Part shown: one piece after another, positions 1,898 through 49,208 of the stretch
Numbering within the stretch: the stretch's first letter is position 1
How the letters are laid out: the number at the start of each line of letters is the position of its first letter
Assembly (NCBI GenBank): GCA_033345195.1
Contig: JAWPOE010000004.1
Location: 108,005-172,004, forward strand
Direction of reading: 5' to 3'
Length of the DNA stretch: 64,000 nt
Origin: Alphaproteobacteria bacterium
GTDB taxonomy: Bacteria; Pseudomonadota; Alphaproteobacteria; Rs-D84
The notes under the pieces: generated by a model
What the model saw: only the letters and a program-made list of their open reading frames with translations
Database searches by the model: none
Told to the model about the DNA's origin: nothing
Program-made: the position numbers and the translations under genes

Positions 1898-4800
1898 TTA
1901 TTCTACTCCCTGGCTTAGACCAGTAGGTTTGAGTAAGTCCGACACTCCCCCTACTGGACAAGTGTTTGTGCCCACCAAGCCATTGAGGTCGACAGCCATG
2001 CATGTAAGCGAGTTCGCAATGTTATTTGTAAATGCTTCGTTATACTCAATCCTTGTTTCGTGATTATCGATGTTACTCTCATTTTCGGCGATTCTACTTT
2101 CATGAGACGAGATATTACCCGCATTCGTCGAGATGGCACTCGTATTATTCGACACCTTACTATTCAGTGAACTTATCACACTGGACCCATTATTCCCCAA
2201 TACATGGTCTAGTGTTGTATAGTTACCAAATGTGCCACCTGGTCTGGTGGTCAGGGCCACGCTTAACACATTACGATTAGTATACGTGCTATCATTAATT
2301 GGCGTGGTTAATGCATAATCCAACACATTGCGATTCTTGTATCTTACAGTATCATATATATTGGTTGTCAATGCAGATTCCAGCGGTGTGAAGTTAACGT
2401 ATCTTGTATCTATCAATGCGTCGCCCAACAGCGTTGTCTTTTGACCTGTTTGCGTCAACAAATTGTCTTTCAAATTACTTTTTGTTATTGCGTTGGCCTG
2501 CAATGTTTCAAGCCCGGATGACAAGTTAGAAATATCGGTCGCTTGATTGCCCACTGTCGTACCCAGATCTCGATAGTTCCCAGAGAGTGTAGACAACCCG
2601 GTGTTGAGGGTTTCAACACTGCCCGACAAACCAGATACCTTGTTATCTACAGTGTTAACCTCTACCTTGGTTGCGTATGTTTGACCCAGGGTTGCGATTC
2701 TGTTATCAAGCGCATTTGGTGTCACAAAGATAGATCCGCCCGCATCTGCCAGTCCATCTGTCCGCACGAATATATCGCCCAGTCCTGTGACCAGTGGTGT
2801 CAGGTTGTCTTTGTTGGACAGGTATGCTACCAATCCGTCATTTGTGACATAACCACGACCATTTAAGTCAGTATCCGTGACATAGTCAGCAAACTTGCCG
2901 TCCACAGTGTTAACCGTTGCCTTGGTTGCGTATGTGTCGCCCAGGCTATTAAATCTGCTGTTTACACTATCATTGGTTGCGTATGTGTCACCTAGGCTAT
3001 TAAATCTGTTGTTTACACTATCGTTGGTTGCATAATCTTTAATTTTGTCATTTGTCACAAATATATCTTCGCCCGTATCTGTTTTCAGTCCTGCAATAGT
3101 ACTCGCCAGTCCATCACTCAGCACGAACCTGTTGTCCAGTTTTGTGATAGTGTCTGTTCTGACCAGGTCACCCGGCAGAACGTTTGGCAATGTTTTTGTT
3201 GTGACATACTCCCATTCACCATCTTTGTCCTTTGGTGCATACTTACCATCCAACCCTGCGATTATTGTGTTTACACTATCGTTGGTTGCATACCCACGAC
3301 CATTTAAATCAGCATTCGTGACATAGTCAGTAAACTTGCCGTTCACAGTGTTAACCTCTGCCTTAGTTGCGTATGTGTCACCCAGGTTATTAAATCTGTT
3401 GTTCACGCTATCATTGGTTGCATACCCACGACCATTTAAATCAGTTTTTGTAACCACGATATCTTTCAGAATGTCAGAGTCGCCCAGTCTGTCTCTAAAG
3501 AATTCTGGGAAGTTATTTTTAACCACAACTGTGTCTTTCCATCCTTTGAATTCTGAATTTATCTCATCATCCTTGGCTGCAAGGCCTGCGATTGTTGTGT
3601 CCATCTCATCCAATCTGCCTGTCAGTTCGCTGACCGTGCCAGGCAAAGTTTTGATATTTTCATCCAGCCCAGCCAATATAGTGCCTTTAAATTCATCGTC
3701 GTCCAACAGTTCGCCTGCGATAGTGTTGCTGATGTTCGCAAACTTGCCGTCCACAGTGTTAACCTCTGCCTTGGTTGCGTATGTGTCACCCAGGCTAGCA
3801 ATTCTTCTATCAAGCCCCGTTGGTGTTACAAATATATCTTCGCCAGTTTCTGTTTTCAGTCCTGCAACATCGTTTGCCAGTCCGTCTCTCAGCACGAACC
3901 TAGTGTCCAGTTCTGTGATAGTGTCTGTTCTGACCAGGTCACCCGGCAGAACGTTTGGCAATGTTTTTGTTGTGACATACTCCCATTCACCATCTTTGTC
4001 CTTTGGTGCATACTTACCATCCAACCCTGCGATTATTGTGTGCACGCTCTCGCTGGTTGCGTATTTGTTGTCCAACCCCGCGATTGTTGTATTAAGTCCG
4101 TCCGTCGTTGCTTTAAGTGCCGCAGCTGTTGCATAAACAGTTGGGATTTTGTCTAGTGTTTGCTTTATTGTTGCGATATCATTAATCTTCATCAGAGAAC
4201 TTTCCGTCACAACCTTATTTTCTGCTAACTTATTCCCGACGATGTTGGCAACAGCCACTTCATCCAATGCAATATTATTTAAATCTGATACGGTTGCAAA
4301 GTTGGAATCTGTGACATATTGCTTCGCAGCAACAAGGGTTGCGTTCTTGGCAACATCGATGTCGTTGGTGACATCCGCTGTTTTTGCATAGTCGCGCAGT
4401 ACCTGGTCACGCTCGTTAATAATTTCTGACTTTATATTTGTTGTTGCGGCACGAATCGCCGTATCTACAGCGTTATTGGTGGCGAAATTCATCTGCTTTA
4501 CTTCTGCAATTGTCGCTGCCTTTACATTTTCTATGTCTGCTGCAAAATTTTCTGCGGTCATAAAACCACGGCTTTCAATTTCATCACTTATCGTTTTAGG
4601 CAGGTCAACAACAGCTTTTTTAACAGATTCATACGATTCAAGTGATGTTTCCAGTTCTGTTATTCTGTCGTCTTTTTGCGCAATTTCCGCCTTTAATAAT
4701 TCGATTTCTTCCTTATAACTAGACAAAGATTCTTCGACTGCATCACGCATTTCGTCGATTTCGTTATACAGATTTTCAAGTTCTTTTTCTGAACGATTCG

Positions 4801-5044
4801 TAATAGGCTTCCCAATGGATACATTTGTCTGTATATTGCTAGATGCAATTGCGCTAAGACGTCCGCCTGTTGTTTTTGCTTGGTTCGTGGAAACGCTGGT
4901 GCCGCTTTTGTTCGTGGGTTTTTTGCTGGTTGCCACTGCACCGCGTACAACACTGGTTCGCAATGTTGGTGTCGTTGCACATATTTCATTTGTTATAAAT
5001 GCAAAGGCAAAAATAATACTGAATAAACGCTTAAAATGAAACAT
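1898..5044 (-). CDS. large secreted repetitive protein (signal peptide, N-terminal coiled coil, tandem fibre-like repeats)
   Basis: 1048 aa ORF; N-terminus MFHFKRLFSIIFAFAFITNEICA is signal-peptide-like; coiled-coil heptads ELENLYNEIDEMRDAVEE...; repeated modules TIIAGLDGKYAPKDKDGEWEYVTTKTLPNVLPGDLVRTDTIT and LGDTYATKAEVNTVDGKF; more than 100 bp near-identical DNA repeats (3150-3265 vs 3930-4045). Confidence 0.8.
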   Translation of the reverse strand: MFHFKRLFSIIFAFAFITNEICATTPTLRTSVVRGAVATSKKPTNKSGTSVSTNQAKTTGGRLSAIASSNIQTNVSIGKPITNRSEKELENLYNEIDEMRDAVEESLSSYKEEIELLKAEIAQKDDRITELETSLESYESVKKAVVDLPKTISDEIESRGFMTAENFAADIENVKAATIAEVKQMNFATNNAVDTAIRAATTNIKSEIINERDQVLRDYAKTADVTNDIDVAKNATLVAAKQYVTDSNFATVSDLNNIALDEVAVANIVGNKLAENKVVTESSLMKINDIATIKQTLDKIPTVYATAAALKATTDGLNTTIAGLDNKYATSESVHTIIAGLDGKYAPKDKDGEWEYVTTKTLPNVLPGDLVRTDTITELDTRFVLRDGLANDVAGLKTETGEDIFVTPTGLDRRIASLGDTYATKAEVNTVDGKFANISNTIAGELLDDDEFKGTILAGLDENIKTLPGTVSELTGRLDEMDTTIAGLAAKDDEINSEFKGWKDTVVVKNNFPEFFRDRLGDSDILKDIVVTKTDLNGRGYATNDSVNNRFNNLGDTYATKAEVNTVNGKFTDYVTNADLNGRGYATNDSVNTIIAGLDGKYAPKDKDGEWEYVTTKTLPNVLPGDLVRTDTITKLDNRFVLSDGLASTIAGLKTDTGEDIFVTNDKIKDYATNDSVNNRFNSLGDTYATNDSVNSRFNSLGDTYATKATVNTVDGKFADYVTDTDLNGRGYVTNDGLVAYLSNKDNLTPLVTGLGDIFVRTDGLADAGGSIFVTPNALDNRIATLGQTYATKVEVNTVDNKVSGLSGSVETLNTGLSTLSGNYRDLGTTVGNQATDISNLSSGLETLQANAITKSNLKDNLLTQTGQKTTLLGDALIDTRYVNFTPLESALTTNIYDTVRYKNRNVLDYALTTPINDSTYTNRNVLSVALTTRPGGTFGNYTTLDHVLGNNGSSVISSLNSKVSNNTSAISTNAGNISSHESRIAENESNIDNHETRIEYNEAFTNNIANSLTCMAVDLNGLVGTNTCPVGGVSDLLKPTGLSQGVE

Positions 5045-10592: not shown

Positions 10593-13500
10593 TTACCATG
10601 TTGTATAACCTGGTGCACATGTATGTTCACACTTCTTTCGTGACGCATTCCACTTTCTGGAACCCGTTTCATCCGAATATGTATCACAGATTAAACGACA
10701 TTCGTTATCTTCCAGATTGTACAATTCTCCCTGGTACATACAGGACGCGATCTCGCAACCACGAACATAACTACTTGCGGCCAATTCGCCATTCGCGCTA
10801 TACATGTTGTTGCAGCGACCGCACTGTTTCCAACCTTCGTTCGTCAGACTGCTGTCATTTGTATATCCTGGATTACATTCGGTTGCAATACATTCGCCCC
10901 ATGTGTTTGTATTATGGTTCCATTCGCGCACGCCAATACCATTTTCCAGTTCACAGACTTGTTCGTCAACCTGGCATGCATTTGAACCAAGATGATATCC
11001 GTCTTCGCAGTCTGTAATTATACATTCGCTAAACGCATTCTTATTAGAATCCCACTTTTGTGTTGCGGCAATTGCATTTGGCGCAGAACATTCAATCACA
11101 TTGGATTCACACGCTTGGCCATTCGGATGATACCCAGAAACACACGATTCAACGACACAGTTTCCACCTTGCTTATAAGATATTGCATTTTCACGCGCAC
11201 ATGGTGTGCATATGCCATCGATTAATTCAAAGTTGTAATTGCATGATGTTTCAATACATACATTGTCGATTATGTCACATGGATTGCCGGTTGGTGAACG
11301 TCCTTCAAATTCGCATTCGAATGGATAGAATACGGTATCCTCGACTGGTACGGCTGTACCATTTGTGACGGCATATTCCACACATTCTTTATAACACGCA
11401 TCGACAGACGACGAACCTGGAACAGACAGCGTATACAACCCACCTGTTAATTCTGAACATGTCTTTGGCATATTGTCAGGCGTATCTGTTGAGCATACAC
11501 TACCTGCTGGACATATCACGCACTGCGCGTTACTCAGATAATACCCTGTATCACACGCAAATGTTTGACATGTATCTGGAATATTTGCGCCATAATAGTC
11601 GCGTCCGACCATTTGTGTTGCATTTTCTGCCAGCCCACAGTCTGCATAGCAGTAATTAACATCTGTCGTTCCCGCATCTGCATACGTGTACGCACCATTT
11701 GTCAGTTCAGAACAACTCATAGGTTTATTGCCTGGTACATTGGTTGAGCATACGCTGCCCTCTGGACATATTATGCATTGACCATCGCTCAGATAATACC
11801 CCGCATCGCACGCTGTTATCTGACATGTGTCTTCGATACTGTCGCCGTAATAGTTGCGGCCTGACACCTGTGTTGCGTTTTCACCCAAATCGCAGTCTGC
11901 ATAGCAGTACGCAACATCTGTCGTTCCAGCCTCTGCATACGTGTACGCACCACTTGTCAGCTCTGAACATGTTTTAGGATCTTCTTGTTGGTTCTCTGTA
12001 TCGCATACACTGCCTGCTGGGCAAATTGTACACTGACCATCATTTACATAGAATCCGCTAGTACATTTTGCTATCTGACATGTATCTGGAATATTTGCGC
12101 CATAATAGTTGCGTCCGACCATTTGTGTTGCATTTTCTGCCAGCCCACAGTCTGCATAGCAGTAATTAACATCTGTCGTTCCCGCATCTGCATACGTGTA
12201 CGCACCATTTGTCAGTTCAGAACATGTCTTTTGTTCCCCGCCAAAGCACACATTATCTGCTGGGCAACCGATACAAGTATTTCCAACTTGTGAATACTTT
12301 TCATCACATTCTGTCACAATACAGTTTGTACAATTCAACGCGTATGCCTCAACTGCTTCATCATAATTACACGTGTTTTCTCCTTTCCCATTGACAATAT
12401 TGCACGACAGATTTTGTTTATAACACTCCGCTGCGCGTTTTGCCTTTGTTGTATCTGTTTTCCCATCGTCTGGACATTGGTACAGCAATGTCGAAGAACC
12501 TGGTTTTGCAGACAATGGTTGCTCCAATTCATTGGCAAAGAATGTTTGCTCCGGACTATAATTATTCGCGCCAACAGGTACACAGTCACGAACACCATCT
12601 TCGTCAACATACTTTCCGTCATCATAATAGCCTGCATTACATGCCACAATTACAGGCATTGCGCATTGATAGCTATAGCCTTTATTTATGTCCGTCTCAC
12701 TTGCGTCGTCAATATGATAGCAACTCAATCTCTGTGCGCCGTTTGTTGTTTCGAACCATCTATCCCCCAGATAACACTGTGTCACCTTTTCTGACGTTGT
12801 GTTTTGTGTTGTCACACCATCAACATCACCCAGATTTGGACATGCCACACGTCCCAAACTTGGTGCAGGACTATAATATCCGTATCCAACTTCTGTACAA
12901 TCTATGTCTTTATTGCTTTCCAACCAATGTCCTGCGATACAAGACATAACCTGTATGTTATCACAATTCACAGAATATGAGTTTGTCGCGTCATCATAAT
13001 AACATGTTTGTTTGCCGCTTGCACGATTTGTATCGGATACATACTGTACATTTGTTGCATAACAGTCCGCCTTTTCATCAGAACCTTTCGCAGATGATAT
13101 AGATACTTCTGTCGGTCTACCATTTTGATTTATTACTTCAACATATGTACCATTTAATGCCGCGCAGTATTCGATACCTTTATCAATTTTGTCGCCGTTT
13201 TGGTGGGTCGTAACACCCCCACAGTATGCTCCATTTGGACATACAACACACGCGTCTTCAAAACCATCATAATACATACCTTTATCGCATTTGATGATTG
13301 GATTTTCACCCCATACCGCAGTTAATGTAGCATTCTCACTAAATATAGTATAGTTCGAGCTAAGACTGCCGTCTGGATTAATGACAACTTCGTCATTCAA
13401 AGCCTTGTATCCACCGAATGAATAGTTTTGTTTTTTAGGTACTGTGATTGATTCAATCCTATCTGTTGCGTCTGCTTGACCGTTCGTACCATTGGTCAGT

Positions 13501-16500
13501 TTTAAATACCAGCCATCGTTATATTTCAAATATATTGTGTCGACTGCCTGTGTCACATCTTCTGCGCCCTTATCAAGTGTGATTGTTAATACTTTCGGGT
13601 AACATACATCGCCCAACGCCGTATACCCTGTGTTGCATTTTGTCTCATATTCACACGCAGGTATCGTGGAATCGTCATAATACACATACTGTTGTTTTGG
13701 TACACGTACGCCATTTTCAATACTGATATTACTGCATGTATTATAGCATTGTATTGGTGACGATGCGTTGTCCACACTGGTTGTTGTGGTCTCGTTCGCG
13801 CCACTTAAATTTGCGCACAACATTTTTTCAATACTGCCCTCAATACTATATGCGCCAATTCCGACCAACGCACATGTTTGTGAATTTTCCGCTTCGCGCC
13901 ATCTGCCGGCGACACAACTTGTAATTTTGATGTTACAACTTGCGTTATATGCATCAGACCCGTAATAACAGGTTTGATCCCCTGCGCCGGTTTTATCGCT
14001 CAATTGGGTGTCTGAACGTACAGCATAACAGTCAGTTATATCATCACTGCCACTTGTCGAGCTGACTTCGCCATTTAATGTATCTGTTGGACATACGCGC
14101 ATACAGCCCAGCGTCGTATCTGTTTCTGTCCCCGCATCAACCCAGCCACCCGGACAATAGTAGCCAGCTTCACATGTGTTGTTATTCACATCAAAACCCG
14201 CACTACATTCTGTCTGCAAGCGTTCCCATTCGGCTGTTAATACGCCATCGTTATTTGTGAACAGTGCAACCTCATCTGTGTTTGGTTTTCCATTCTCGTC
14301 AATGACTTTTATATCTCCTTTGAAATAACCCTTGAAAGCATAATTTGTTCTTTGTGGCGTTTCTATTGCCGATAAAACATTGCTGCCCCCTTCGTCAGAA
14401 TACCAACCGACCGTATATTTTTGATAAATTGTCTCTGTTCCACCAGAACCACCATTGGTATTCAGTGTTACTTTCCACACCCCTGGATCACATGATGCAA
14501 TAGTCGTCGCAGTATTTGGTGCACCATATAACGTACGCGAATAACCATATTCAATATCGCCAGTTGTACGTGCTATATAGCCTGTATCACATGTATATGT
14601 AAATGAACAGAATGTTGTAGGTGTACATATTGTATTTGGATACCAACGGAATCCATTACGTGCTGTTAAATTTTCTGTACAGGTTGCATGTTCTGGACAA
14701 TGGTTAACATATTCGCCAGTTAATTTGTCATCTGCCCCCAGTACATAGTCGTGATATAAGTTACATGTAGGCGTACATCCCGCGCCATAGCATGCGCTTG
14801 CCCCCGCGCTCATGTTTGCATTAATGGACGAAGACCAGCATGTTTCTGTGCCACCACTCGCATTCGGACACAGCCCCTCTAACGAAGAGCACTTTTCAGA
14901 ACAGTCATTTACATCGCTGGTTAAATACATGCCAGAAGAGCACTTTGTATACGTATTATATAGAACTGGGCAAGTATTATCATCCCCTCCCTCGGTGTTG
15001 CCGGTCGGGTACAGTGTAATAGTCGTCTTTGCTGTTGTGTCGTACGCGCAACTTAAGAAGTTCTTATTAGGACATATTTTGCAATATCTTTCCCCCTCGC
15101 ACGGGTCGTAACATGCTGTTTCTTCTGTTTTATAACATTCATCTGCTGATGTTGCGCCTGCGTCAGATTCAGTATAACTGCCGTCGCCAACAGTTTGGCA
15201 ACTGTAAATGCCTTGGTCGTTATTGGAATCAATTTCATAGACGTCTTCGTCGGTTCCTGGGCAGTAATTCCCTGGGGTACATGTTTCACATTTCAAAGTC
15301 CCACGTGGCAGGTATTCACCCACGTCGCAAGCATCTATCGTCTCTGTATTTTTTATCCAGCCTGCTGTTAATGTCGTATCTTCAGCAATGTCCCAGTCTT
15401 GTGCAGAAGAATTGTCTGCATTAATATACAGTGTTTCATTATACCACCACCCCGTAAATACATATCCTGTGCGTACCGGTGTTATGCCCGGATTACTCAT
15501 TGGCTGACCATATGTCACAGTCATTGGGTCTGGTGTTCCGACCCCGTCGCCCGGGTCAAACGTCACAGTATATCTGTTTGCATTACAACTGGGGGTTGCG
15601 GTGTTTGCATTGCTGACGGTATAACCCGTATTGCATGACGCGGTATACGTTGCCGTGCCATTGCTGTTAATGGTCAGAGCGCATATACCATTCTCAGGTT
15701 TGACGCAATCCATGGCCCAGCCCGCGTACAAGGTGGTGTCTCGGGTGGCTGATGTTGGTTTTGGCAATTCTGCCGATGGTCCAATGACAGGTATACTTTC
15801 ACCACCACTGGCGGTCAGGTCAGCCTGTTGTTTAGAATAATATCCACGGAACTTATAGTCTGTGCGTGCAGGAACCGGTGCTACCTTCAATGACTGGGTT
15901 CCATCACTAATATCGTACCAACCTGTATCATATCTTTCATAAATTTTCGTCTCGTCATCTGTGCCATCATTGTGCATTAATGTAATTATATAGATGCTTG
16001 GCGCGCATGCTTTTGCAATTGTAACGCCAAAGCCCTGATAGTTGTCATAACAATCATAACGTGCATACAACTTCGCCGTGTTGTCCAAGGCACTCATACA
16101 TGCAGATGACGACGAAAGAGCGCCGTTAGAATCAATACACTGTATGCCAACACTGGTGTGCGCGGTGTATGCCCCAACATAACGTGCATTTGTCTTTGAT
16201 GGTTTTGTAACGCTTGTAATTTGGGTGGAACAATCGCTGTCACTATAATAATAGGATGAATCCGTCTTTTTATAAATCTCTGTCGTGCCACCTGTGCCAC
16301 CATTGGTGGTATTGTCTATGGTAATTTTGGTACATGCCGACGTCCAGCATGCATGCAGCGCTGCATTTTCTGTATACGACGTATTGGTGAAATCGGTGGT
16401 TATATAACCATTGGCATCGATACGCTGGATCCCAGAGCAAGCTGTACTGGTATAATATCCACCAAATTTATAACCTGTTTTGGCTGGGGTTGTAATTGGA

Positions 16501-17873
16501 TTTGCAGTCGTTGACATCTTTTTTGTCAAAGATGTATCCAGATAAACACCATCGGAATACACAAAATATACTGTACCAGGTGCGGTCCCATTGTCATTAA
16601 CCAGCCCAATCATACGTATCGGGCGACGCCCCGCATAATATGTAACAGTTGCCGCCGTTGACGTAATAGATGGCTTATGTGTAAGCGTCACGGAACTATT
16701 ATCTGGCAGGGTTTCACTTGTATACCAGCCATCAAAAATCTTGTATCCTGACGCCGGTGTTAATGTCGCCGGACTGGGCATTGGACATTCCTTGTTATAT
16801 TTACAACACTGGGTTATAGTGTTGGCACTGGAACTGGGGGTCCATGTCTTTGGATTTCCACATCCATCTGGCCACGTCAATGTTGCACCTGTTGCACCAT
16901 TTGCATTTAATGTCACGGTACGATAACAATCTGTCTGCGCCCCTGCACCTGCCGCCGACGTCCAATTCGTTGGACACTGGTTTTGTGTCACACTGGTCGA
17001 CCCAGCCGGACAGTAATAACCCGCAGTACATGCCGACCATACGACATACAGTTCAACAGTACCGCCATTGGCTGTGGTCAGATTTGTAACAGATTCTTTA
17101 TCGGTGTACTCCACCTCCTCGTTTGTTGCCGTTGGCGATGTTGCCCAACCCTGGAAAACATAGCCCGTGCGTTTAAATGTATTTGCGCTTAGTTCCTGTG
17201 CCACCCCATATGTAAATGACTGACGTTTTGTGGCGGCACTTGTCGAATTGTCATTTGAATGGAACAAAACTGTGTATGTATTTGCGGTACATTTATTATT
17301 ATATACATGATATCCGGTGCCGCATATAATCCATCTTGCATAAATGGTTTTGTCACTTGTTACTGTCCATGTCTCACCTGTATTGGCGCCATCGCTATCA
17401 AACAACTGTGTCCCACCGATAAGATTGGTGGTATATATTCCTTTAAATTCGGCGCTTGATGATGTTGCAGATATATTCCCCGATAATTCGGTTGTACATG
17501 TTTCGTCTGTGTACCATGTATTGTCCCCAGTTTTCTTGTACAGTACATTTCGTAAAACCGTAGAGTTCGCAGTGCTGGATGAAATTGTTATCTTGTTACA
17601 GTTTTGAACAGGATGCGCAATCCCAGCATTACATGTCCAACCGTCTAAACATTTTATACATGAGTTTCCAGTATGTGGTCGTACACCACCATACTTCAAA
17701 CTTTCAATCAGTTCTTCTTGTGTTGTGCCCCAGTCAGCAAGATAATACCCCGCACTACACGACGTGTATGTTTTTAATGTCGGACACGTATATCCCGCAG
17801 CAAGCACATTTGTGCCCAAAAATACGGTTGCAAAAATTGTTAAAATTCCCAGAAATCTGCGGATTTTCCCCAT
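10593..17873 (-). CDS. giant cysteine-rich surface protein with Listeria-Bacteroides (InlB B-repeat-like) repeats
   Basis: about 2426 aa from the ATG preceded by AGAGAGGAAG RBS (the track ORF extends to 18017); signal peptide MGKIRRFLGILTIFATVFLGTNVLAA; many TGYxFxGW(Y) motifs; Cys-rich modules CxxGYYxxDGQCxxCPxGSxC; 3 x 86-aa perfect tandem repeats. Confidence 0.85.
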   Translation of the reverse strand: MGKIRRFLGILTIFATVFLGTNVLAAGYTCPTLKTYTSCSAGYYLADWGTTQEELIESLKYGGVRPHTGNSCIKCLDGWTCNAGIAHPVQNCNKITISSSTANSTVLRNVLYKKTGDNTWYTDETCTTELSGNISATSSSAEFKGIYTTNLIGGTQLFDSDGANTGETWTVTSDKTIYARWIICGTGYHVYNNKCTANTYTVLFHSNDNSTSAATKRQSFTYGVAQELSANTFKRTGYVFQGWATSPTATNEEVEYTDKESVTNLTTANGGTVELYVVWSACTAGYYCPAGSTSVTQNQCPTNWTSAAGAGAQTDCYRTVTLNANGATGATLTWPDGCGNPKTWTPSSSANTITQCCKYNKECPMPSPATLTPASGYKIFDGWYTSETLPDNSSVTLTHKPSITSTAATVTYYAGRRPIRMIGLVNDNGTAPGTVYFVYSDGVYLDTSLTKKMSTTANPITTPAKTGYKFGGYYTSTACSGIQRIDANGYITTDFTNTSYTENAALHACWTSACTKITIDNTTNGGTGGTTEIYKKTDSSYYYSDSDCSTQITSVTKPSKTNARYVGAYTAHTSVGIQCIDSNGALSSSSACMSALDNTAKLYARYDCYDNYQGFGVTIAKACAPSIYIITLMHNDGTDDETKIYERYDTGWYDISDGTQSLKVAPVPARTDYKFRGYYSKQQADLTASGGESIPVIGPSAELPKPTSATRDTTLYAGWAMDCVKPENGICALTINSNGTATYTASCNTGYTVSNANTATPSCNANRYTVTFDPGDGVGTPDPMTVTYGQPMSNPGITPVRTGYVFTGWWYNETLYINADNSSAQDWDIAEDTTLTAGWIKNTETIDACDVGEYLPRGTLKCETCTPGNYCPGTDEDVYEIDSNNDQGIYSCQTVGDGSYTESDAGATSADECYKTEETACYDPCEGERYCKICPNKNFLSCAYDTTAKTTITLYPTGNTEGGDDNTCPVLYNTYTKCSSGMYLTSDVNDCSEKCSSLEGLCPNASGGTETCWSSSINANMSAGASACYGAGCTPTCNLYHDYVLGADDKLTGEYVNHCPEHATCTENLTARNGFRWYPNTICTPTTFCSFTYTCDTGYIARTTGDIEYGYSRTLYGAPNTATTIASCDPGVWKVTLNTNGGSGGTETIYQKYTVGWYSDEGGSNVLSAIETPQRTNYAFKGYFKGDIKVIDENGKPNTDEVALFTNNDGVLTAEWERLQTECSAGFDVNNNTCEAGYYCPGGWVDAGTETDTTLGCMRVCPTDTLNGEVSSTSGSDDITDCYAVRSDTQLSDKTGAGDQTCYYGSDAYNASCNIKITSCVAGRWREAENSQTCALVGIGAYSIEGSIEKMLCANLSGANETTTTSVDNASSPIQCYNTCSNISIENGVRVPKQQYVYYDDSTIPACEYETKCNTGYTALGDVCYPKVLTITLDKGAEDVTQAVDTIYLKYNDGWYLKLTNGTNGQADATDRIESITVPKKQNYSFGGYKALNDEVVINPDGSLSSNYTIFSENATLTAVWGENPIIKCDKGMYYDGFEDACVVCPNGAYCGGVTTHQNGDKIDKGIEYCAALNGTYVEVINQNGRPTEVSISSAKGSDEKADCYATNVQYVSDTNRASGKQTCYYDDATNSYSVNCDNIQVMSCIAGHWLESNKDIDCTEVGYGYYSPAPSLGRVACPNLGDVDGVTTQNTTSEKVTQCYLGDRWFETTNGAQRLSCYHIDDASETDINKGYSYQCAMPVIVACNAGYYDDGKYVDEDGVRDCVPVGANNYSPEQTFFANELEQPLSAKPGSSTLLYQCPDDGKTDTTKAKRAAECYKQNLSCNIVNGKGENTCNYDEAVEAYALNCTNCIVTECDEKYSQVGNTCIGCPADNVCFGGEQKTCSELTNGAYTYADAGTTDVNYCYADCGLAENATQMVGRNYYGANIPDTCQIAKCTSGFYVNDGQCTICPAGSVCDTENQQEDPKTCSELTSGAYTYAEAGTTDVAYCYADCDLGENATQVSGRNYYGDSIEDTCQITACDAGYYLSDGQCIICPEGSVCSTNVPGNKPMSCSELTNGAYTYADAGTTDVNYCYADCGLAENATQMVGRDYYGANIPDTCQTFACDTGYYLSNAQCVICPAGSVCSTDTPDNMPKTCSELTGGLYTLSVPGSSSVDACYKECVEYAVTNGTAVPVEDTVFYPFECEFEGRSPTGNPCDIIDNVCIETSCNYNFELIDGICTPCARENAISYKQGGNCVVESCVSGYHPNGQACESNVIECSAPNAIAATQKWDSNKNAFSECIITDCEDGYHLGSNACQVDEQVCELENGIGVREWNHNTNTWGECIATECNPGYTNDSSLTNEGWKQCGRCNNMYSANGELAASSYVRGCEIASCMYQGELYNLEDNECRLICDTYSDETGSRKWNASRKKCEHTCAPGYTTW
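11459..12232. repeat. intragenic tandem repeat, 3 copies of about 258 bp, near-perfect
   Basis: identical stretches longer than 140 bp at about 11575-11720 and 12075-12225; the track shows identical antisense peptides in 11565..11747 and 11985..12293. Confidence 0.8.
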
Positions 17874-18033
17874 GTTCTTCCTCTCTTTTATACTGTATGG
17901 TAGAAAATTTGTAGCCATATGCGCAAGGGAAAACGTGTATATACAATGAAAATATTTTTTATTTGATAAAAAATTAAGAAATAGAAATTTTTGGCTTGCA
18001 TGATTTTTATAATACATATATAATGACCGCCGT

Positions 18034-18172: not shown

Positions 18173-19453
18173 ATGACGCACATGAATGGAATTGTCCCAA
18201 TTTTAAACGAAACACAAATGGCTGCCTTTAACGCGGTAGAGCGGACAAATTCAAACGTTTTAATCTTTGGACCTGCTGGGACTGGGAAATCAACGTTTGT
18301 AAATTTTCTAAAAAGCGCATCAAAGAAACGTATTGTTTGTGCATGTCCGACGGCGGTTTCTGCATTAAACGTTGGTGGACAAACGATACATTCTTTGTTT
18401 CAGATTCAGCCCCGTGACTTTATTATGCCCGAATTTTTAAAATTAAAGGCAAAACCACGTAATATATTAAACGCCACAGATGTTTTGATTATTGATGAAA
18501 TATCAATGGTTGCGCCTGATTTATTGGATGCGATTGACATCTTGGCACGTATGGCGCGCCGAAATAACGAACCATTTGGTGGAATTCAGGTTGTTGCAAT
18601 TGGTGACTTGTTTCAATTGCCACCGGTTATAACGCGCGATGCGGCCCAGTACTATGCGTCTGAATACGGTCATGCAAATTCGTATTTCTTTGATAGTAAT
18701 GTTTATAAGCGTGCAGATTTTATAAAATTTGATTTTGATTTTGTATATCGTCAGAACGATATGCCATTGTTAGAGAATCTGGTACGTCTGCGACAAAATC
18801 AAACGGATTCACTGGAATTTTTTAATGCCTGTCGCATTGATGATGCTGAGCGTCGTTCGAATGCAGTAATAATTACGCCGTTTCGCGCAGTTGCCGAACG
18901 CATAAATGCAACACGTCTGGCACAAATTCCAGAGACAGAGGTTGCCTATAACGGTGTCCTGACTGGAAATTTTTCAGAACGCGATGTTCCGGCACCACTC
19001 AGTTTGGTATTAAAGGTTGGCGCGTTGGTTGTTTTTGTTAAAAATTGTGATAAATGGCACAATGGTTCCATGGGTATTGTGCGCAGTTTGTCTGCGCGTG
19101 AAATTGTTGTGCAACTGTTATCTGATTCCCGTGAATTGGTGACGGTTAAACCAGACAAATGGCAGAAAATAGAATACAGTCGCGATGAAAACGACCGCTT
19201 GGTTGAAAACGAAGTTGGATCATACAAACAATTCCCATTAAACCTGGGGTATGCCATGACAATACACAAGGCCCAGGGAAAAACGCTGGACGCGGTTGTT
19301 GTTGATATTTCGCGTGGCGCATTCGCCCACGGCCAGGTTTATGTTGCACTGTCGCGCACGCGTCGTGCGTCTGATATGCATATTGCGTCGCCGTTGCGAC
19401 CACGTGATGTCATATTTGATAATCGTGTATTGGAATTTGTGGGTGATTTATAA
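18173..19453 (+). CDS. PIF1/RecD-like superfamily-1 DNA helicase
   Basis: Walker A GPAGTGKST, Walker B DEISMV, Pif1 signature GDLFQLPPV; 426 aa. Confidence 0.8.
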   Translation: MTHMNGIVPILNETQMAAFNAVERTNSNVLIFGPAGTGKSTFVNFLKSASKKRIVCACPTAVSALNVGGQTIHSLFQIQPRDFIMPEFLKLKAKPRNILNATDVLIIDEISMVAPDLLDAIDILARMARRNNEPFGGIQVVAIGDLFQLPPVITRDAAQYYASEYGHANSYFFDSNVYKRADFIKFDFDFVYRQNDMPLLENLVRLRQNQTDSLEFFNACRIDDAERRSNAVIITPFRAVAERINATRLAQIPETEVAYNGVLTGNFSERDVPAPLSLVLKVGALVVFVKNCDKWHNGSMGIVRSLSAREIVVQLLSDSRELVTVKPDKWQKIEYSRDENDRLVENEVGSYKQFPLNLGYAMTIHKAQGKTLDAVVVDISRGAFAHGQVYVALSRTRRASDMHIASPLRPRDVIFDNRVLEFVGDL

Positions 19454-19834
19454 TTCTTTTTTCATCATGATTGCATCGACCCCGTCATAGTACTTTGGGC
19501 GAACGCCGACCTGAACATATCCATTTTGCTCATACAAAGAACGGGCAGGGCGGTTATCTTCTGCAACCTCTAAGAAAACATGTTTTATTCCATTTTTTCG
19601 CAGTTCGTTTTCCATAATGCCCAACATCGCCGCTGCAATTCCGCCACGACGTGCATCGGGCGCAACGCCAATTGTAATCAGTTCTGCTTCGTCTGCGACC
19701 GCGCGCCAAACAATAAAACCATTTTGACTGGCGATAATTTCACATCCTGATTTTTTTAAATCAGCAAAATCGTCCGCCCCCCACGGCTTGTGCGGAAAGC
19801 ATTTTTGATGAAGATTCGCCAACGTGTTTAACAT
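19448..19834 (-). CDS. rimI: GNAT N-acetyltransferase, RimI-like (ribosomal-protein-alanine acetyltransferase)
   Basis: GNAT motifs; directly downstream of and overlapping tsaB, the conserved tsaB-rimI arrangement. Confidence 0.75.
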   Translation of the reverse strand: MLNTLANLHQKCFPHKPWGADDFADLKKSGCEIIASQNGFIVWRAVADEAELITIGVAPDARRGGIAAAMLGIMENELRKNGIKHVFLEVAEDNRPARSLYEQNGYVQVGVRPKYYDGVDAIMMKKEL

Positions 19835-20373
19835 TATTTTTTATTTTGTTCTGCATAACTGGGACGCAGGTACATTGGCACCGCAGGTTCATTGTCGCCA
19901 TTTGCAATTTTTTCTGCGACAACTTTTACCCCCAGTTTTAAATCGAATGGTTTATGACCGACGGTACGCGCCCATTCCATCTGCTTTGTTTCGATTTCTT
20001 CGATTTGCATTGTTTGCGGTTCTAATCCGTTCGCCGCGACAAAGAAATCACCGCGCCCCGAATCGATTGCAACAAAGGCATCTGGTGTCGCCGCCAGATA
20101 TAAATCAAATGCACTGATACCAACAACTGGAATATTTAACCCCATTGCAATCCCTTTGGCGTATGCGATACCCAGGCGAATGCCTGTAAAACTGCCTGGA
20201 CCAACAACGATACCGATTGCATCAATTTCACGCCATGACGCGCCACATTCTGTTATAAACTTTTCGCATTCTGTCGGCAATGCAACAGATTGCTTTTCCA
20301 CCACAACAGATTTGTATTTATCATCCAATACAAATTCTAAATCTTTACCTGATGTATTTATAACAAGAATCAT
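19834..20373 (-). CDS. tsaB: tRNA threonylcarbamoyladenosine biosynthesis protein TsaB (YeaZ)
   Basis: AIGIVVGPGSFTGIRLGIAYAKGIA is the YeaZ/TsaB fold signature; 179 aa. Confidence 0.85.
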   Translation of the reverse strand: MILVINTSGKDLEFVLDDKYKSVVVEKQSVALPTECEKFITECGASWREIDAIGIVVGPGSFTGIRLGIAYAKGIAMGLNIPVVGISAFDLYLAATPDAFVAIDSGRGDFFVAANGLEPQTMQIEEIETKQMEWARTVGHKPFDLKLGVKVVAEKIANGDNEPAVPMYLRPSYAEQNKK

Positions 20374-20672
20374 CTTCCGCGCTCCTTGGCATTCAGTGTT
20401 TCAAATACGGCGCGTGCCAACATGCCGTCGCCATCATACTGCAATGTTTTTTTATTCGCAGATACGATGTTTTCAACCCGCAGTCTATATGAATATGGCG
20501 CGTTTGGATATCGGATATCAGCAATACTTCTTTCAGATAATACGTGTGTTTTTCCCAAAGACATTTCATAACAATAAGATACGGATATATCGGCTATATT
20601 GTATTTCCCTTTGGGTTTTGTTCTTAAATTATTAATTTTATCAAAAAAAATTGCCATTTCCAAATTATTCAT
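20370..20672 (-). CDS. hypothetical protein
   Basis: 100 aa ORF with 4-nt overlap with tsaB; no recognisable domain. Confidence 0.45.
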   Translation of the reverse strand: MNNLEMAIFFDKINNLRTKPKGKYNIADISVSYCYEMSLGKTHVLSERSIADIRYPNAPYSYRLRVENIVSANKKTLQYDGDGMLARAVFETLNAKERGR

Positions 20673-20686
20673 ATCATATATCCTTG

Positions 20687-22450
20687 TTATACGCGTGCAT
20701 TAAATCCAATTTTTTTATTAAAACCGGCAGATTTTCGAACAGATAACAGTTCATCAATTTTTTCTGGTGTAAATTCTGTTTTGATATCTTCGCAGTTATT
20801 TTCCAACAAAGAGCGGCGCAGAATCGCGGTCAGTTCGCGCTTAATTTCGCGCACACCTTGTTCAGATGTATAGTTTTGAATAATATGCTTAATCGAATCA
20901 TCAGAAATAACGATATCTTCAACGTTCCATCCCGTATCGCGTGCCGAGCGTTCAATTAAATGTTCGCGTACAATTTTAATCTTGTCGTCCATTGAATAGC
21001 CTGGAATCTCAATAATTTCCATACGGTCTTTCAACGCGTTTGACAGGTTTAAGCTGTTTGCAGTCGCGATAAACATAACCTTAGACAAATCGAAATCAAC
21101 TTCTAAATAATGGTCGCGAAATGTTTTGTTTTGTTCAGGGTCTAAAATTTCCAATAATGCGGATTCTGGGTCGCCACGCCAATCACGCCCCATTTTATCA
21201 ATTTCATCCAACACAATCACAGGGTTGTTTGTTTTACAGCGTTTTAATGCATCCATAATACGACCTGTTTGCGCGCCAATATATGTTTTGCGATGGCCAC
21301 GGAAATGTGCCTCATCAGATATTCCGCCCAATGATATACGTTGATATTTGCGCCCCAGCGCAGTCGCAATCGATTTGCCCAACGATGTTTTTCCAACACC
21401 CGGCGCACCAACAAAGCACAGTATTGTACCCTGATTGGATTTTGTTTTTTTCATAACCGCAATATGCTCCAAAATGCGTTCTTTGACAGCCTGCATTCCG
21501 GAATGTTCAGAATCCAAAACTTCGCGTGCTTTTTTCAGGTCAATTGGCGCATCGTCAGATTTATCCCACGGCATCGCCAACAGTTCGTCCAGATATGTTT
21601 TTAACAAACCGCCTTCGTTTGACATTGGTGACATGGAACGCATACGTTTCCATTCATTCATTGCTTTTTCTTTGGCGTCATTTGGCATTGCCGATTTTTG
21701 AATCTTTTTGCGAATGTTTGCAGTATCCATTTCACCGTCATCTTCGCCCATTTCCTTTTGCAACGCACGCATTTTTTCTTGCAAGATTGCTTCGCGGCGT
21801 CCCTGTTCCATCTGTTGATGAATACGTTTGTTAATTGATTCTTCAATCTTAACGGTTTCCGCCATCAATTTGACTTCTTCTAACAAGATTGTCAGTTTCT
21901 TTTCCCAACTGTCTGCGCACAAAACCTTTACCGCAACATCGGTGTCGATATCAGCTGTTTGAATAACAGAATCAACAAACGCGGGCAGGGGATAATTATT
22001 TACCACATTGCGTAATTTTTCGGCTTTGAATTTACGTGTTGATGACGCTAATGCCTGCATATTGTCTGCCAGAATATCGCGCAACATTTGTGTCTGTTCC
22101 GCGTTCATATCGTCGGCAATTTTTATTATCTCTGTTGTGGCAGAAAACAGGCCGTCTTTAACCTCTATCTCGCGCAGGGCGACAACATCTGTTGTACGAA
22201 CCAACGCATGAATCGCGCCATCTGGCATGGTTAAAATTTGAACGACGTCCGCCATTGTCCCGAAATGATAAATATCATCAACATTTGTTGGGTATGACCA
22301 ACTGTGTTGTGGAACTAAAATCAATTGATGATGTCCTGCGCCTGTTGCGGTTTTAACGCATGATACAGACATTTGATTATCGATTAACACTGGTACGGTC
22401 AGCCCAGGCGACACGACCAAATCACGAAATGGTAAAATATAGTTTCTCAT
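20687..22450 (-). CDS. lon: Lon-like ATPase (Lon N-domain plus AAA+ module) lacking the S16 peptidase domain
   Basis: collinear with E. coli Lon from residue about 10 to the AAA+/protease junction (GAPGVGKTS, DEIDK, ends ...IDELLSVRKSAGFNKKIGFNARV where E. coli has LGVQRFDYG); stop falls exactly where the protease domain should begin, and the next 600 nt encode unrelated ORFs. Confidence 0.85.
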   Translation of the reverse strand: MRNYILPFRDLVVSPGLTVPVLIDNQMSVSCVKTATGAGHHQLILVPQHSWSYPTNVDDIYHFGTMADVVQILTMPDGAIHALVRTTDVVALREIEVKDGLFSATTEIIKIADDMNAEQTQMLRDILADNMQALASSTRKFKAEKLRNVVNNYPLPAFVDSVIQTADIDTDVAVKVLCADSWEKKLTILLEEVKLMAETVKIEESINKRIHQQMEQGRREAILQEKMRALQKEMGEDDGEMDTANIRKKIQKSAMPNDAKEKAMNEWKRMRSMSPMSNEGGLLKTYLDELLAMPWDKSDDAPIDLKKAREVLDSEHSGMQAVKERILEHIAVMKKTKSNQGTILCFVGAPGVGKTSLGKSIATALGRKYQRISLGGISDEAHFRGHRKTYIGAQTGRIMDALKRCKTNNPVIVLDEIDKMGRDWRGDPESALLEILDPEQNKTFRDHYLEVDFDLSKVMFIATANSLNLSNALKDRMEIIEIPGYSMDDKIKIVREHLIERSARDTGWNVEDIVISDDSIKHIIQNYTSEQGVREIKRELTAILRRSLLENNCEDIKTEFTPEKIDELLSVRKSAGFNKKIGFNARV

Positions 22451-22507
22451 AGTGAGATAAATATAAAACTTTTTTATATTTTTTCAAGACATACTTACAC
22501 AGATAAA

Positions 22508-22535
22508 AAACCCACCGTTTGGTGGGTCTTTTTAT
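22508..22535. terminator. terminator hairpin downstream of rubrerythrin
   Basis: aaaaacccaccgtttggtgggtcttttt. Confidence 0.55.
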
Positions 22536-26489: not shown

Positions 26490-26526
26490 TACGCCAAAAA
26501 AATCCCCATTTTGGGGATTTTTTATT
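26490..26526. terminator. bidirectional terminator between convergent genes (AAATCCCC..GGGGATTT family)
   Basis: aaaaaaatccccattttggggatttttt. Confidence 0.55.
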
Positions 26527-27763
26527 TGCTTATACAATTCGAAAATTGCTGTGCAACTGACGATGTCTCAGATGGTGTCATTTGTGCAACCTGCACAATA
26601 AAACATCTGGCACCGTCGCGAACAATAAATACTTTTGTGCCTTTGACATATGCCTGTTGCATGTTATCGACCTGCGCCGTTGTAAAGAACGGGTTTTGCG
26701 TTAATGCTGTATTTGTTAATGCTGCTTGAACCGCCTGTGATGCGCGATCATATGTATAAATCTGTTCGCTCATTGATTCTACTTCCATCCAGGTTGGCCA
26801 AAACTGATACGGATTTTCTGCTTTTTTTTGTTCGCCTGGCCCAATCGCGACACCCGTTGCCAGTGCTGCAATCGTTTGCAGATTGCTTGGTTGTGATGCG
26901 CCAGATGATTTTGTTGCCATGTTTAATTGCAGATTATCACCGCACGCCAAATTCATACGATTAACGTAGTCTGCCAAGACAGAATTGACCGCCATTTCCC
27001 AATTTTCACCCTTGCTGTTCATCTCCAGGCTAACAATCTTTTCCGCCCAGCCCCAAACACTTGCGCCTGTATTCCCTGCGTTGGCAAAGCGCGTCACCAT
27101 TTCTGCACTGCCCCCCGGAACACCTGCACCGCAATAGTCGGTTAATTGTGTCCTCAACATGCTGTCTGTTTCGTTTCCATATGCCATTGCTGCCGAATGA
27201 CATGCCATCGCTGCCTCTAATTCCTGGCGACGTTGCAGGCACAAATCAGAATGCTGTTTTGACAACTGATTTGCCATATTTGCCATTGACAGATACGCCA
27301 TCAGTTCTTGTTGAACATATGATGGGCAAAGGCGTGCAGCAGTATTCATGCCATTTTTTCCATTCATGGTATTTACGCCGTACTGTGGTAATAAAATACT
27401 TGTGTCGCGTTGCAGACACAGCAATGCATAATTATATAGTTCGCTTTCTGTTGCATACTTGCATTTTGATTCGCGTACACCTGGCACAACCGTTGTGTCG
27501 CCACAGTATTCGGTCAGGCATGCAAAAATACGTTCACGACATGCCGTGTCAACGTCTGGCTGATTAATCATAAAATAATTATTCCGTTGATTTGTTTTAT
27601 ATGCGTTTGCCAAACCCGCATTTCCGCGTAATTGCGTTGTTGTATTTGAACCAACATAGTTCTTGGTACCATGAACAGTCACACCTGCCGGCGAAACAGC
27701 ATTTGCAGAATTTGCCAGCAAACATGCACCAATTATGCCGAAAATACAGAAAAAGTTCTTCAT
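26522..27763 (-). CDS. secreted protein, hypothetical
   Basis: start moved to MKNFFCIFGIIGACLLANSANA (signal peptide) preceded by GAGAGGGA RBS; about 413 aa; no known domain. Confidence 0.65.
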   Translation of the reverse strand: MKNFFCIFGIIGACLLANSANAVSPAGVTVHGTKNYVGSNTTTQLRGNAGLANAYKTNQRNNYFMINQPDVDTACRERIFACLTEYCGDTTVVPGVRESKCKYATESELYNYALLCLQRDTSILLPQYGVNTMNGKNGMNTAARLCPSYVQQELMAYLSMANMANQLSKQHSDLCLQRRQELEAAMACHSAAMAYGNETDSMLRTQLTDYCGAGVPGGSAEMVTRFANAGNTGASVWGWAEKIVSLEMNSKGENWEMAVNSVLADYVNRMNLACGDNLQLNMATKSSGASQPSNLQTIAALATGVAIGPGEQKKAENPYQFWPTWMEVESMSEQIYTYDRASQAVQAALTNTALTQNPFFTTAQVDNMQQAYVKGTKVFIVRDGARCFIVQVAQMTPSETSSVAQQFSNCISK

Positions 27764-27857
27764 AATAATCCCTCTCGTTGAAACGATTTTAACATAAATG
27801 CATAAAAAAGGCAAACATTCATTTGATTTAATAAAATAAAATGTTATCATCACGAAC

Positions 27858-28929
27858 ATGATTATTGTTTCGGACGTTTTATCGCAAATCTCAGACGACA
27901 TTTCTGCCGTCAGGGGGTTTCTTTGACCCAGAAAAATTGCAAAAACAGATTGATGAATTGAACACTCTGGTAAACGCCCCCGATTTGTGGAATAATCCAG
28001 ACAACGCGCGCGCGTTATTGCAAAAGAAGTCCGGTCTGGAAAAGACGTTGAACGACTTATTATCTATGGAATCGGAACTTTTGGGCTTGCGCGAATTGTA
28101 TGAAATGGATTCGAATGACCAAGAAATAATTTCCGCAATTGAAAATTTGGCAGATGTTGCCCATCGTGCAAAGTTTATAACGTTGTTCCGCGAACCTGCG
28201 GATAATGATGGTGCATTCTTGTTTATTCAGGCGGGTGCCGGCGGGACCGAGGCACAAGATTGGGCGCAAATGCTGTCGCGTATGTATTCGCGCTGGGCAG
28301 AACGCCATGGCTTTAGTTGCGAGGTTATAGAAGAACACGAAGGCGACACTGCTGGTATTAAAAACATAACATATCGCATATCAGGCGCGCGTGCGTACGG
28401 TTGGTTAAAAAACGAAATCGGCGTTCATCGTCTGGTTCGTATATCGCCATTTAATGCCAATGGCAAGCGTCAGACCAGTTTCGCGTCCGTCGACGTATGG
28501 CCCGATATCGATGATACAATTGAAATTGAAATTAATGACAAGGATTTACGTATTGATACATATCGGGCATCTGGTGCCGGCGGTCAACATGTTAACAAGA
28601 CAGACAGCGCGGTTCGTATCACGCACATCCCAACAAATACTGTTGTTACATGTCAGAACGAGCGCAGCCAAATTCAAAATCGCGAAATGGCGATGAAAAT
28701 GTTGCGCAGTAAATTGTATGAACTGGAAATGCAAAAGCGTGCCGCCGAAGAAGATGCCGCCAAGGCTGCGCAAAAGAAAATAGAGTGGGGCAGTCAAATC
28801 AGAAATTATGTCCTGTATCCGTATCAGTTGGTCAAAGATGTACGTACCGGCGTTGAAAAAACGGATTCGGATGCTGTTTTAGATGGTGATTTAGATGATT
28901 TTATGTTGGCGCTATTGCAACGCGGATAA
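27858..28929 (+). CDS. prfB: peptide chain release factor 2 with programmed +1 ribosomal frameshift at 27921-27926
   Basis: frame-0 MIIVSDVLSQISDDISAVRGFL then CTT TGA C slippery site preceded by AGGGGG; the +1 frame continues DPEKLQKQIDEL... with RF2 motifs SPF and GGQHVNKTDSAVR. Confidence 0.9.
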
Positions 28930-47164: not shown

Positions 47165-47190
47165 AAACGCCCATTCGGGCGGTTGTTTTT
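47165..47190. terminator. bidirectional terminator (cgcccattcgggcg hairpin)
   Basis: aaaaaaaacgcccattcgggcggttgttttt between convergent genes. Confidence 0.55.
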
Positions 47191-49114: not shown

Positions 49115-49208
49115 TCCTTTTCTCCCTAAGTGCAAAATGCAAACTTCTTAATATCTTGCAGTTCTTTTGAATTTATACTAAAATCCAAGAAATAAAGCAA
49201 GGGCAGAA

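Follow-up and report, generated by a model that had tools for sequence, protein, structure and literature searches.

Lon is the textbook AAA+ protease, in which the motor and the protease are fused in one chain and the protease domain normally hangs from the C-terminus of the AAA+ module. All Lons have been described as single chains with ATPase and protease domains (PMC9569914), and a Lon-like protease without ATP-powered unfolding activity has also been described (PMC3391209). The AAA+ partners of peptidases bind them through P-loops or C-terminal tails that leave the peptidase-facing ring (PMC12521514), and ClpX, ClpA and ClpC dock in the hydrophobic H sites of ClpP by the tripeptide PhiGF (PMC9035409, PMC12521514). 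In the present study, we analysed a truncated lon gene, here called lon', on a stretch of 64,000 nucleotides from an alphaproteobacterial genome assembly (GCA_033345195.1, contig JAWPOE010000004.1, positions 108,005 to 172,004 of the forward strand; hereafter the window). The product of lon' is a LonA by descent, yet it fails the trait that defines the family, an S16 domain on the same chain. Whereas the known natural Lon variants lose the motor, in the gut and rumen clade that carries lon' nothing but the motor of the primary Lon is left, and it is under strong selection. The same has happened independently in a second phylum, and the tails of both bear the motif that other motors use for docking onto ClpP. 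Our favoured reading, which we hold with a little less than even confidence, is that lon' encodes a Lon-derived unfoldase that would dock in trans onto ClpP through its tail.

Domain content, conservation and origin of the truncated Lon

The open reading frame (ORF) of lon' starts with ATG and ends in ...IDELLSVRKSAGFNKKIGFNARV, followed by TAA. Its product is NCBI protein MDW2958561.1, which is annotated as 'AAA family ATPase'. The PF02190 match of the N-domain (amino acids 5-193) had an E-value of 1e-20 and was weak for the family, with 75 bits against 105-166 bits in the other Lons scanned alongside. No Pfam match to Lon_C (PF05362) was obtained in the product. The NCBIfam model TIGR00763 (lon) matched across model positions 2-567 of 795 only, and the score of 530.1 bits lay under the curated equivalog cutoff of 608.05; the score against PRK10787 was 448.7 versus a cutoff of 891, and the lon' family stands outside any curated family. 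The protein aligned collinearly with E. coli Lon (6u5z), residues 5-549 of the query corresponding to 13-557 of Lon (417 bits). This alignment and the Pfam domains confirmed an earlier note on this DNA, which had read the ORF as collinear with E. coli Lon through the N-domain and the AAA+ module and as ending where the S16 domain should begin; the missing Lon_C and the early end of the TIGR00763 match bore out the second point. The Walker A and B motifs, the pore-loop tyrosine, sensor-1, the arginine finger and sensor-2 were invariant in 70 aligned sequences. An AlphaFold2 monomer model, with a mean predicted local distance difference test (pLDDT) score of 80, had a Lon-like N-domain, a long helix and the AAA+ module.

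The lost domain was sought in the surrounding DNA. Neither a tblastn search of the window, with Lon_C from the nearest full-length relative as the query, nor a Lon_C profile hidden Markov model (HMM) run against its six-frame translation gave a match. When the same model was run against the six-frame translation of 785 kb, comprising the window and 90 loci of the clade, the only match was in the full-length control locus (L004). A protease domain that had been frameshifted or that lay nearby is thus excluded by these searches, as the earlier note had judged. Both of the downstream elements that it reported, an unrelated ORF of 100 amino acids and then tsaB, were found, and the 100-amino-acid ORF was without similarity to the protease domain. 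The note had also proposed a check for misassembly. In a Logan assembly made independently from run SRR22345191, the gene is identical and has the same neighbours, and the truncation of lon' is therefore not an assembly error.

Among 5.8 billion proteins searched, there were at least 120 clusters (90% identity level) of 586-597 amino acids, plus a few of 608-610 amino acids. The clusters were 78-100% identical to lon' and had the same domain set, none of them with Lon_C, and NCBI labels their members 'AAA family ATPase [Alphaproteobacteria bacterium]'. The family reaches deeper with P0121 (593 amino acids) and P0122 (580 amino acids), which are 52% identical, were obtained by an exhaustive search of representatives at 50% identity and are likewise without Lon_C. 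A metagenome scan yielded 80 further loci, 64-88% identical, from human-gut and other gut-type metagenomes, and the stop codon lay at the same position in each of the 73 loci that contain a complete 3' end. At least 195 relatives (64-100% identity), together with the two at about 52%, end at the same place. A profile search of genome contigs with the family alignment gave, among the matches listed, one clade genome, UBA6376 (L006); 79 canonical Lon loci from this search served as controls. The clade with the truncated lon is broad.

The ratio of nonsynonymous to synonymous substitution rates (dN/dS), calculated pairwise against twelve relatives, was 0.06-0.14, with synonymous sites close to saturation. 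A pseudogene or decaying gene was rejected on these ratios and on the uniform stop position in all complete homologs. The earlier note had offered two explanations; a recent truncation by genome decay did not survive these results, and a protease-less Lon-like AAA+ protein was supported by the conservation, the selection and the intact motor. From the sequences compared, lon' is almost certainly a real, selected, ATP-active and protease-less gene derived from the primary lon. Two other assignments were considered. Descent from ClpX was rejected, as the best family matches were to Lon, ClpA reached only 33 bits, and neither ClpX nor zf-C4_ClpX was matched. A Lon-like ATPase of anti-phage defence was also rejected, since the PADLOC matches went no further than generic AAA+ similarity (DolB, 53 bits) and lon' is surrounded by housekeeping genes.

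The tail was left out of the neighbour-joining trees. In these, the truncated proteins of Alphaproteobacteria were monophyletic (100/100) and nested (100/100) in a clade of full-length Lons formed by the P0125 group, P0395 and P0396. The nearest full-length relatives, P0125 (769 amino acids, 49% identity) and P0392 (labelled 'Rickettsiales bacterium'), have an intact Lon_C with the Ser-Lys dyad, and their full-length lon lies at lon-tsaB-rimI, the same locus as lon'. In proteobacteria, the primary lon classically lies at lon-hupB, and the deeper full-length P0395 is found at lon-orf-hupB. Given the shared locus and the nesting in full-length Lons, lon' is therefore a positional ortholog of the primary lon. 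The trees and gene orders indicate that the protease domain was removed once in the alphaproteobacterial clade, cleanly and in situ.

The C-terminal tail and its counterpart in Bacteroidales

The earlier note did not see the conserved PhiGF motif in the C-terminal tail. Alignment with the full-length sisters revealed that the tail is the homolog of the linker between the AAA+ module and the protease, together with strand 1 of the missing S16 domain: where the sisters have ...VRKYDFGKPADKDVVGIVN followed by GLAY..., the window protein has ...VRKSAGFNKKIGFNARV and stops. Residues 574-587 had pLDDT values <50 and no secondary structure in the AlphaFold2 model, and this part of the tail is predicted to be disordered.

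The sequence [KR]-I-G-F was present in 194 of the 195 family sequences. In this set the residue after IGF was G (147) or S (35), and the next was V (112) or A (56). The distance from IGF to the stop was exactly four residues in 180 of the 195 sequences (range 4-7), and the last four residues were variable (G/S, V/A, R/H/G/N..., I/A/L/V/Q). A second PhiG[FLM], mostly AGF, occurred six residues upstream of IGF in 139 of 195, the copy in the window being A575-G576-F577. In 181 canonical Lons, the homologous segment read [VIP]-G-[VQIL..]-[VA]-[TN]-GLAWT with an invariant Gly; Phe after this conserved Gly was found in none of the 181, nor in the closest full-length relatives. IGF[GSA]A.V[KR] is the loop sequence in 68 proteobacterial ClpX proteins whose genes adjoin lon at the canonical control loci. 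The pentapeptide IGFGA or IGFSA is an exact ClpX match only in those lon' members that have Ala at +2 (56/194). A docking tail of the HbYX or HslU type was rejected: such tails have conserved residues at the extreme C-terminus, either a penultimate Tyr or the HslU C-terminal motif, whereas here the last four residues vary and the motif has 4-7 residues after it. An invariant short motif on a tail predicted to be disordered is characteristic of docking elements. The PhiGF tail shifts the likely mechanism away from a plain chaperone and towards an unfoldase docked onto a separate peptidase.

A similar protein was found in Bacteroidales. P0145 (615 amino acids) is 38% identical to the window protein and without Lon_C; its closest relatives are four truncated proteins of 626-627 amino acids (P0271-P0274), and after these come full-length Lons of Bacteroidales (Muribaculaceae-type), which are 57% identical. 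The five truncated proteins were monophyletic (100/100) and nested in the Bacteroidales Lons (100/100), and their grouping with the alphaproteobacterial family was recovered in 0/100. Their loci, arranged as tig...AlgH-lon'<-CN_hydrolase<-PAD_porph...RuvC, are positional orthologs of the locus of the full-length P0275. The truncated tails read RR[TV]FG[RH]-V-G-F-S-[AVT]-xxx before the stop, versus [PTA]-G-V-V-T-GLAWT in the full-length relatives. Two independent losses of the protease domain in situ, as reconstructed from these sequences, gave the same tail, with PhiGF-[GS]-[AV] close to the stop. The possibility that the two ORFs lying between tig and AlgH at these Bacteroidales loci are divergent ClpP genes was examined and rejected.

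Possible partners of the tail

If lon' docks onto ClpP, it would still form a Lon-type ring, which would grip substrates through the N-domain and the pore loops and translocate them with ATP. Six C-terminal PhiGF tails would leave the ring face that formerly carried the protease and would dock in hydrophobic clefts, the H sites, on a separate peptidase, with ClpP as the most likely one. In doing so, they would play the role of the IGF loops of ClpX and of the PhiGF P-loops of ClpA and ClpC. The outcome would be a coaxially docked, two-component 'Lon motor + ClpP' protease. With some reserve, we suggest a hybrid AAA+ protease, in which a Lon motor without the S16 chamber is plugged into ClpP by ClpX-like PhiGF tails and which may have evolved at least twice, once in gut Alphaproteobacteria and once in Bacteroidales.

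Several observations weigh against docking onto ClpP. Probes for clpP, clpX and hslV, which were E. coli sequences validated by their matches at canonical loci, found none of these genes in the window or in the ±10 kb flanks of about 90 clade loci; with the same probes, clpP-clpX was found adjoining lon in 64-69 of the 79 canonical loci. Within the motif, [VI]-G descends from strand 1 of the former S16 domain, and only the F and the following G/S are new. A motif as short and hydrophobic as PhiGF could also fit a different groove. In known ClpP partners it is borne on an internal loop, whereas lon' bears it on a C-terminal tail. Finally, the Lon AAA+ body is common to both convergent lineages, which may instead have converged on a receptor within Lon.

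The last of these points leads to the alternative that fares best, namely that lon' encodes a stand-alone unfoldase, chaperone or remodeller, which would hold, unfold or disassemble clients without a peptidase, or act on DNA-bound proteins. Proteolytically inactive Lon and Pim1 mutants keep chaperone-like activities. The motor and the N-domain of lon' are intact and under purifying selection, and no peptidase gene was linked to it in the approximately 90 loci. The PhiGF tail would then serve lon' itself, for example in autoregulation, or by clamping neighbouring subunits in place of the protease ring that stabilises the hexamer; the two convergent lineages have the same Lon AAA+ surfaces, where an internal receptor could be the target. 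However, the tail is predicted to be disordered, not packed, in the monomer model. The equivalent segment in full-length Lon is part of the protease domain, and we know of no pre-existing AAA+ pocket for it. Action without a peptidase also leaves unexplained why two independent lineages reached the ClpX-type PhiGF[GS][AV]. Taken together, we regard this alternative as a serious but rather doubtful one.

The homology of the tail to the linker and strand 1, and the position of the cut just before the most conserved GLAWT block, would suit a split Lon, in which a free-standing S16 gene elsewhere is complemented in trans by the retained first strand. Yet neither the window nor the clade flanks (785 kb) yielded a Lon_C match, and the tail has diverged from the canonical strand, with F in place of V/Q/I (0/181 canonical) and G/S in place of V/A. 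Moreover, four variable residues lie past the motif, and the Bacteroidales tail is not collinear with the ancestral PGVVTG. A split Lon is thus improbable.

We consider it less probable again that lon' docks onto another self-compartmentalised peptidase such as HslV, or co-assembles with or regulates a second full-length Lon paralog. Docking by a C-terminal tail is used by HslU and the proteasomal ATPases (PMC12521514); the extreme C-terminus of lon' is variable, unlike the HbYX or HslU tails, and lies 4-7 residues past the motif, and hslV was present in no flank examined. As for a second Lon paralog, the sole canonical Lon from the same sample series, P0505 (831 amino acids, same rumen project), was tried as a second Lon of the same genome and assigned to a different organism: its loci have a guanine-plus-cytosine (GC) content of 32% and a tetranucleotide r of about 0.5 to the window, versus 0.91 within the clade, and the NCBI accession blocks are unrelated. 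P0505 comes from a low-GC (32-33%) gut or rumen alphaproteobacterium (L169-L177), adjoins radA, cvpA and a glycogen-debranching gene, and is longer than the usual LonA.

A misassembled, frameshifted or freshly pseudogenised lon can be dismissed, given the identical independent assembly, the same stop in at least 195 homologs, the low dN/dS, the absence of a remnant in any frame and the tsaB gene that abuts the stop directly in many loci.

Genomic setting and comparison with known systems

The features of lon' and its neighbours are collected in Table 1.

Table 1. Coordinates of lon', its parts and neighbouring genes in the window, and of the truncated lon genes of Bacteroidales
Feature	Position	Strand	Remarks
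lon'	20687..22450	-	protease-less LonA-derived AAA+ protein, 587 amino acids
Lon N-terminal substrate-binding domain	21872..22438	-	amino acids 5-193, Pfam LON_substr_bdg
AAA+ core	21011..21421	-	amino acids 344-480, Pfam AAA
Walker A	amino acids 348-356		GAPGVGKTS; within AAA+ core
Pore-loop-1	Y390		GHRKTYIG; in AAA+ core
Walker B	D415, E416		VLDEIDK; in AAA+ core
Sensor-1	N465		in AAA+ core
Arginine finger	R476		DRME; in AAA+ core
Lon AAA+ lid (alpha subdomain)	20804..20935	-	amino acids 506-549, Pfam Lon_lid; sensor-2 R534 (GVR)
C-terminal tail	20690..20743	-	SVRKSAGFNKKIGFNARV; amino acids 570-587, last 18 residues
PhiGF motif	20702..20710	-	I581-G582-F583, preceded by KK
TAA stop codon	20687..20689	-	position conserved family-wide
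Sigma-70-like promoter match	22460..22487	-	TTGAAA-16-TATATT, 10/12, consensus match only; just upstream of lon' start
100-amino-acid ORF	20370..20672	-	no family; variable slot between lon' and tsaB
tsaB	19834..20373	-	179 amino acids; conserved downstream neighbour; start overlaps stop of 100-amino-acid ORF
rimI-like GNAT acetyltransferase	19448..19834	-	128 amino acids; last gene of conserved lon-tsaB-rimI arrangement
Bacteroidales truncated lon	L166 2905-4752		compare full-length L180 5352-7751
Bacteroidales truncated lon	L168 4114-5994		compare full-length L180 5352-7751

At about 35 of the related loci, tsaB begins 10-23 nucleotides past the lon' stop or overlaps it; in the remaining ones, 285-440 nucleotides (720 in one) with a small ORF separate the two genes. 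The 100-amino-acid ORF in this slot showed only marginal similarity (E 0.023) to its small counterparts at other loci. It was rejected both as a remnant of the protease and as an obligate partner, as it has no Pfam or Lon_C similarity and the slot is empty in about half of the loci. About half of the related loci contain, in the same slot (L002, L006, L088-L164), a small ORF of 87-137 amino acids. The small ORFs evolve fast, fall into groups with weak links in HMM comparison and have in common a helix-like C-terminal motif, G-x-hydrophobic-A-[RK]-x-hydrophobic-hydrophobic. The 100-amino-acid ORF is translationally coupled to tsaB by an ATGA overlap. TsaB itself is short in this lineage, with 179 amino acids here and 133-162 in the sister lineages (L004 2795-3283; L178 10399-10800), and the TsaD/TsaB Pfam model covers its N-terminal half only. 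Convergent to rimI lies a PIF1/RecD-like helicase of 426 amino acids (18173-19453, + strand), which is kept in the loci read for gene content (L001, L002, L003 and L006) and to which PADLOC gave weak RecD-like matches only.

A sequence scan of the window found no terminator-like site 3' of lon', as would be expected if lon' were co-transcribed with the small ORF, tsaB and rimI. Between the rubrerythrin gene and lon', a GC-rich hairpin (ACCCACC-GTTT-GGTGGGT) with a T run was observed at 22510-22527; it is probably a terminator that separates the two transcription units.

The window has a GC content of 42%, carries a TrcR cell-cycle regulator and a rubrerythrin, and comes from an uncultured gut alphaproteobacterium. 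The clade loci with a truncated lon (L001-L165) range from 33% to 52% GC, and their tetranucleotide signatures are very alike (mean r 0.91 to the window). Other ORFs of the window were also inspected. A giant ORF of 2474 amino acids (10593-18017, - strand), whose only family match was to the Listeria-Bacteroides repeat (Flg_new), is probably a surface or adhesin-like protein. An ORF of 581 amino acids (39297-41042, + strand) joins an AccD-type zinc ribbon and carboxyltransferase with an AccA domain, and the beta and alpha subunits of the acetyl-CoA carboxylase carboxyltransferase appear to be fused in it. Long ORFs with no Pfam family, or with a spurious one only, were found at 33718-37545 (+ strand, 1275 amino acids), 1898-5044 (- strand, 1048 amino acids), 26522-27901 (- strand, 459 amino acids) and 47189-49135 (- strand, 648 amino acids). 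The lineage is one with many large unannotatable proteins.

An incomplete literature search found no natural protease-less Lon and no Lon with an IGF tail, which is weak evidence of novelty. There is a substantial chance that lon' represents a new type of hybrid AAA+ protease. If its tail binds ClpP, it would be the first Lon-ClpP hybrid, and Lon substrates would be degraded by ClpP in these organisms. Fused and two-component designs of AAA+ proteases would then be able to interconvert in nature, and a handful of residues would be enough to rewire the partner specificity between an unfoldase and a peptidase. The tail peptide and ClpP would also offer a simple natural system for the minimal needs of coupling a foreign motor. 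If the tail does not bind ClpP, lon' would still be a natural, selected 'protease-dead' Lon, in which the long-debated protease-independent functions of Lon would be directly testable.

Among the known systems, LonA (E. coli Lon, MEROPS S16, endopeptidase La) is homologous to lon' over the N-domain, the long helix, the AAA+ module and the lid; lon' differs in being without the whole S16 Ser-Lys domain, the start of which is replaced by the PhiGF tail. LonC and the ATP-independent Lon-like proteases are likewise natural variants of the Lon family in which one activity is lost, but they keep the protease and lose the ATPase, and lon' is their mirror image. With HslU and the proteasomal ATPases, lon' would share the principle of a C-terminal AAA+ tail in the pockets of a separate peptidase (PMC12521514); its motif is PhiGF, not HbYX or the HslU tail, and its extreme C-terminus is variable. 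The likeness to ClpX, ClpA and ClpC lies in a hexameric-type AAA+ motor with pore loops and a flexible PhiGF element on the peptidase-facing side, and IGF[GS][AV] of lon' overlaps the ClpX loop consensus IGF[GSA]A. In contrast to ClpX, with which the homology is limited to the generic AAA+ fold, lon' is without the zinc-binding domain, has the motif on a C-terminal tail, and binds ClpP only putatively. In its inferred operation, lon' resembles the ClpX-type partners of ClpP, to which it is unrelated by descent.

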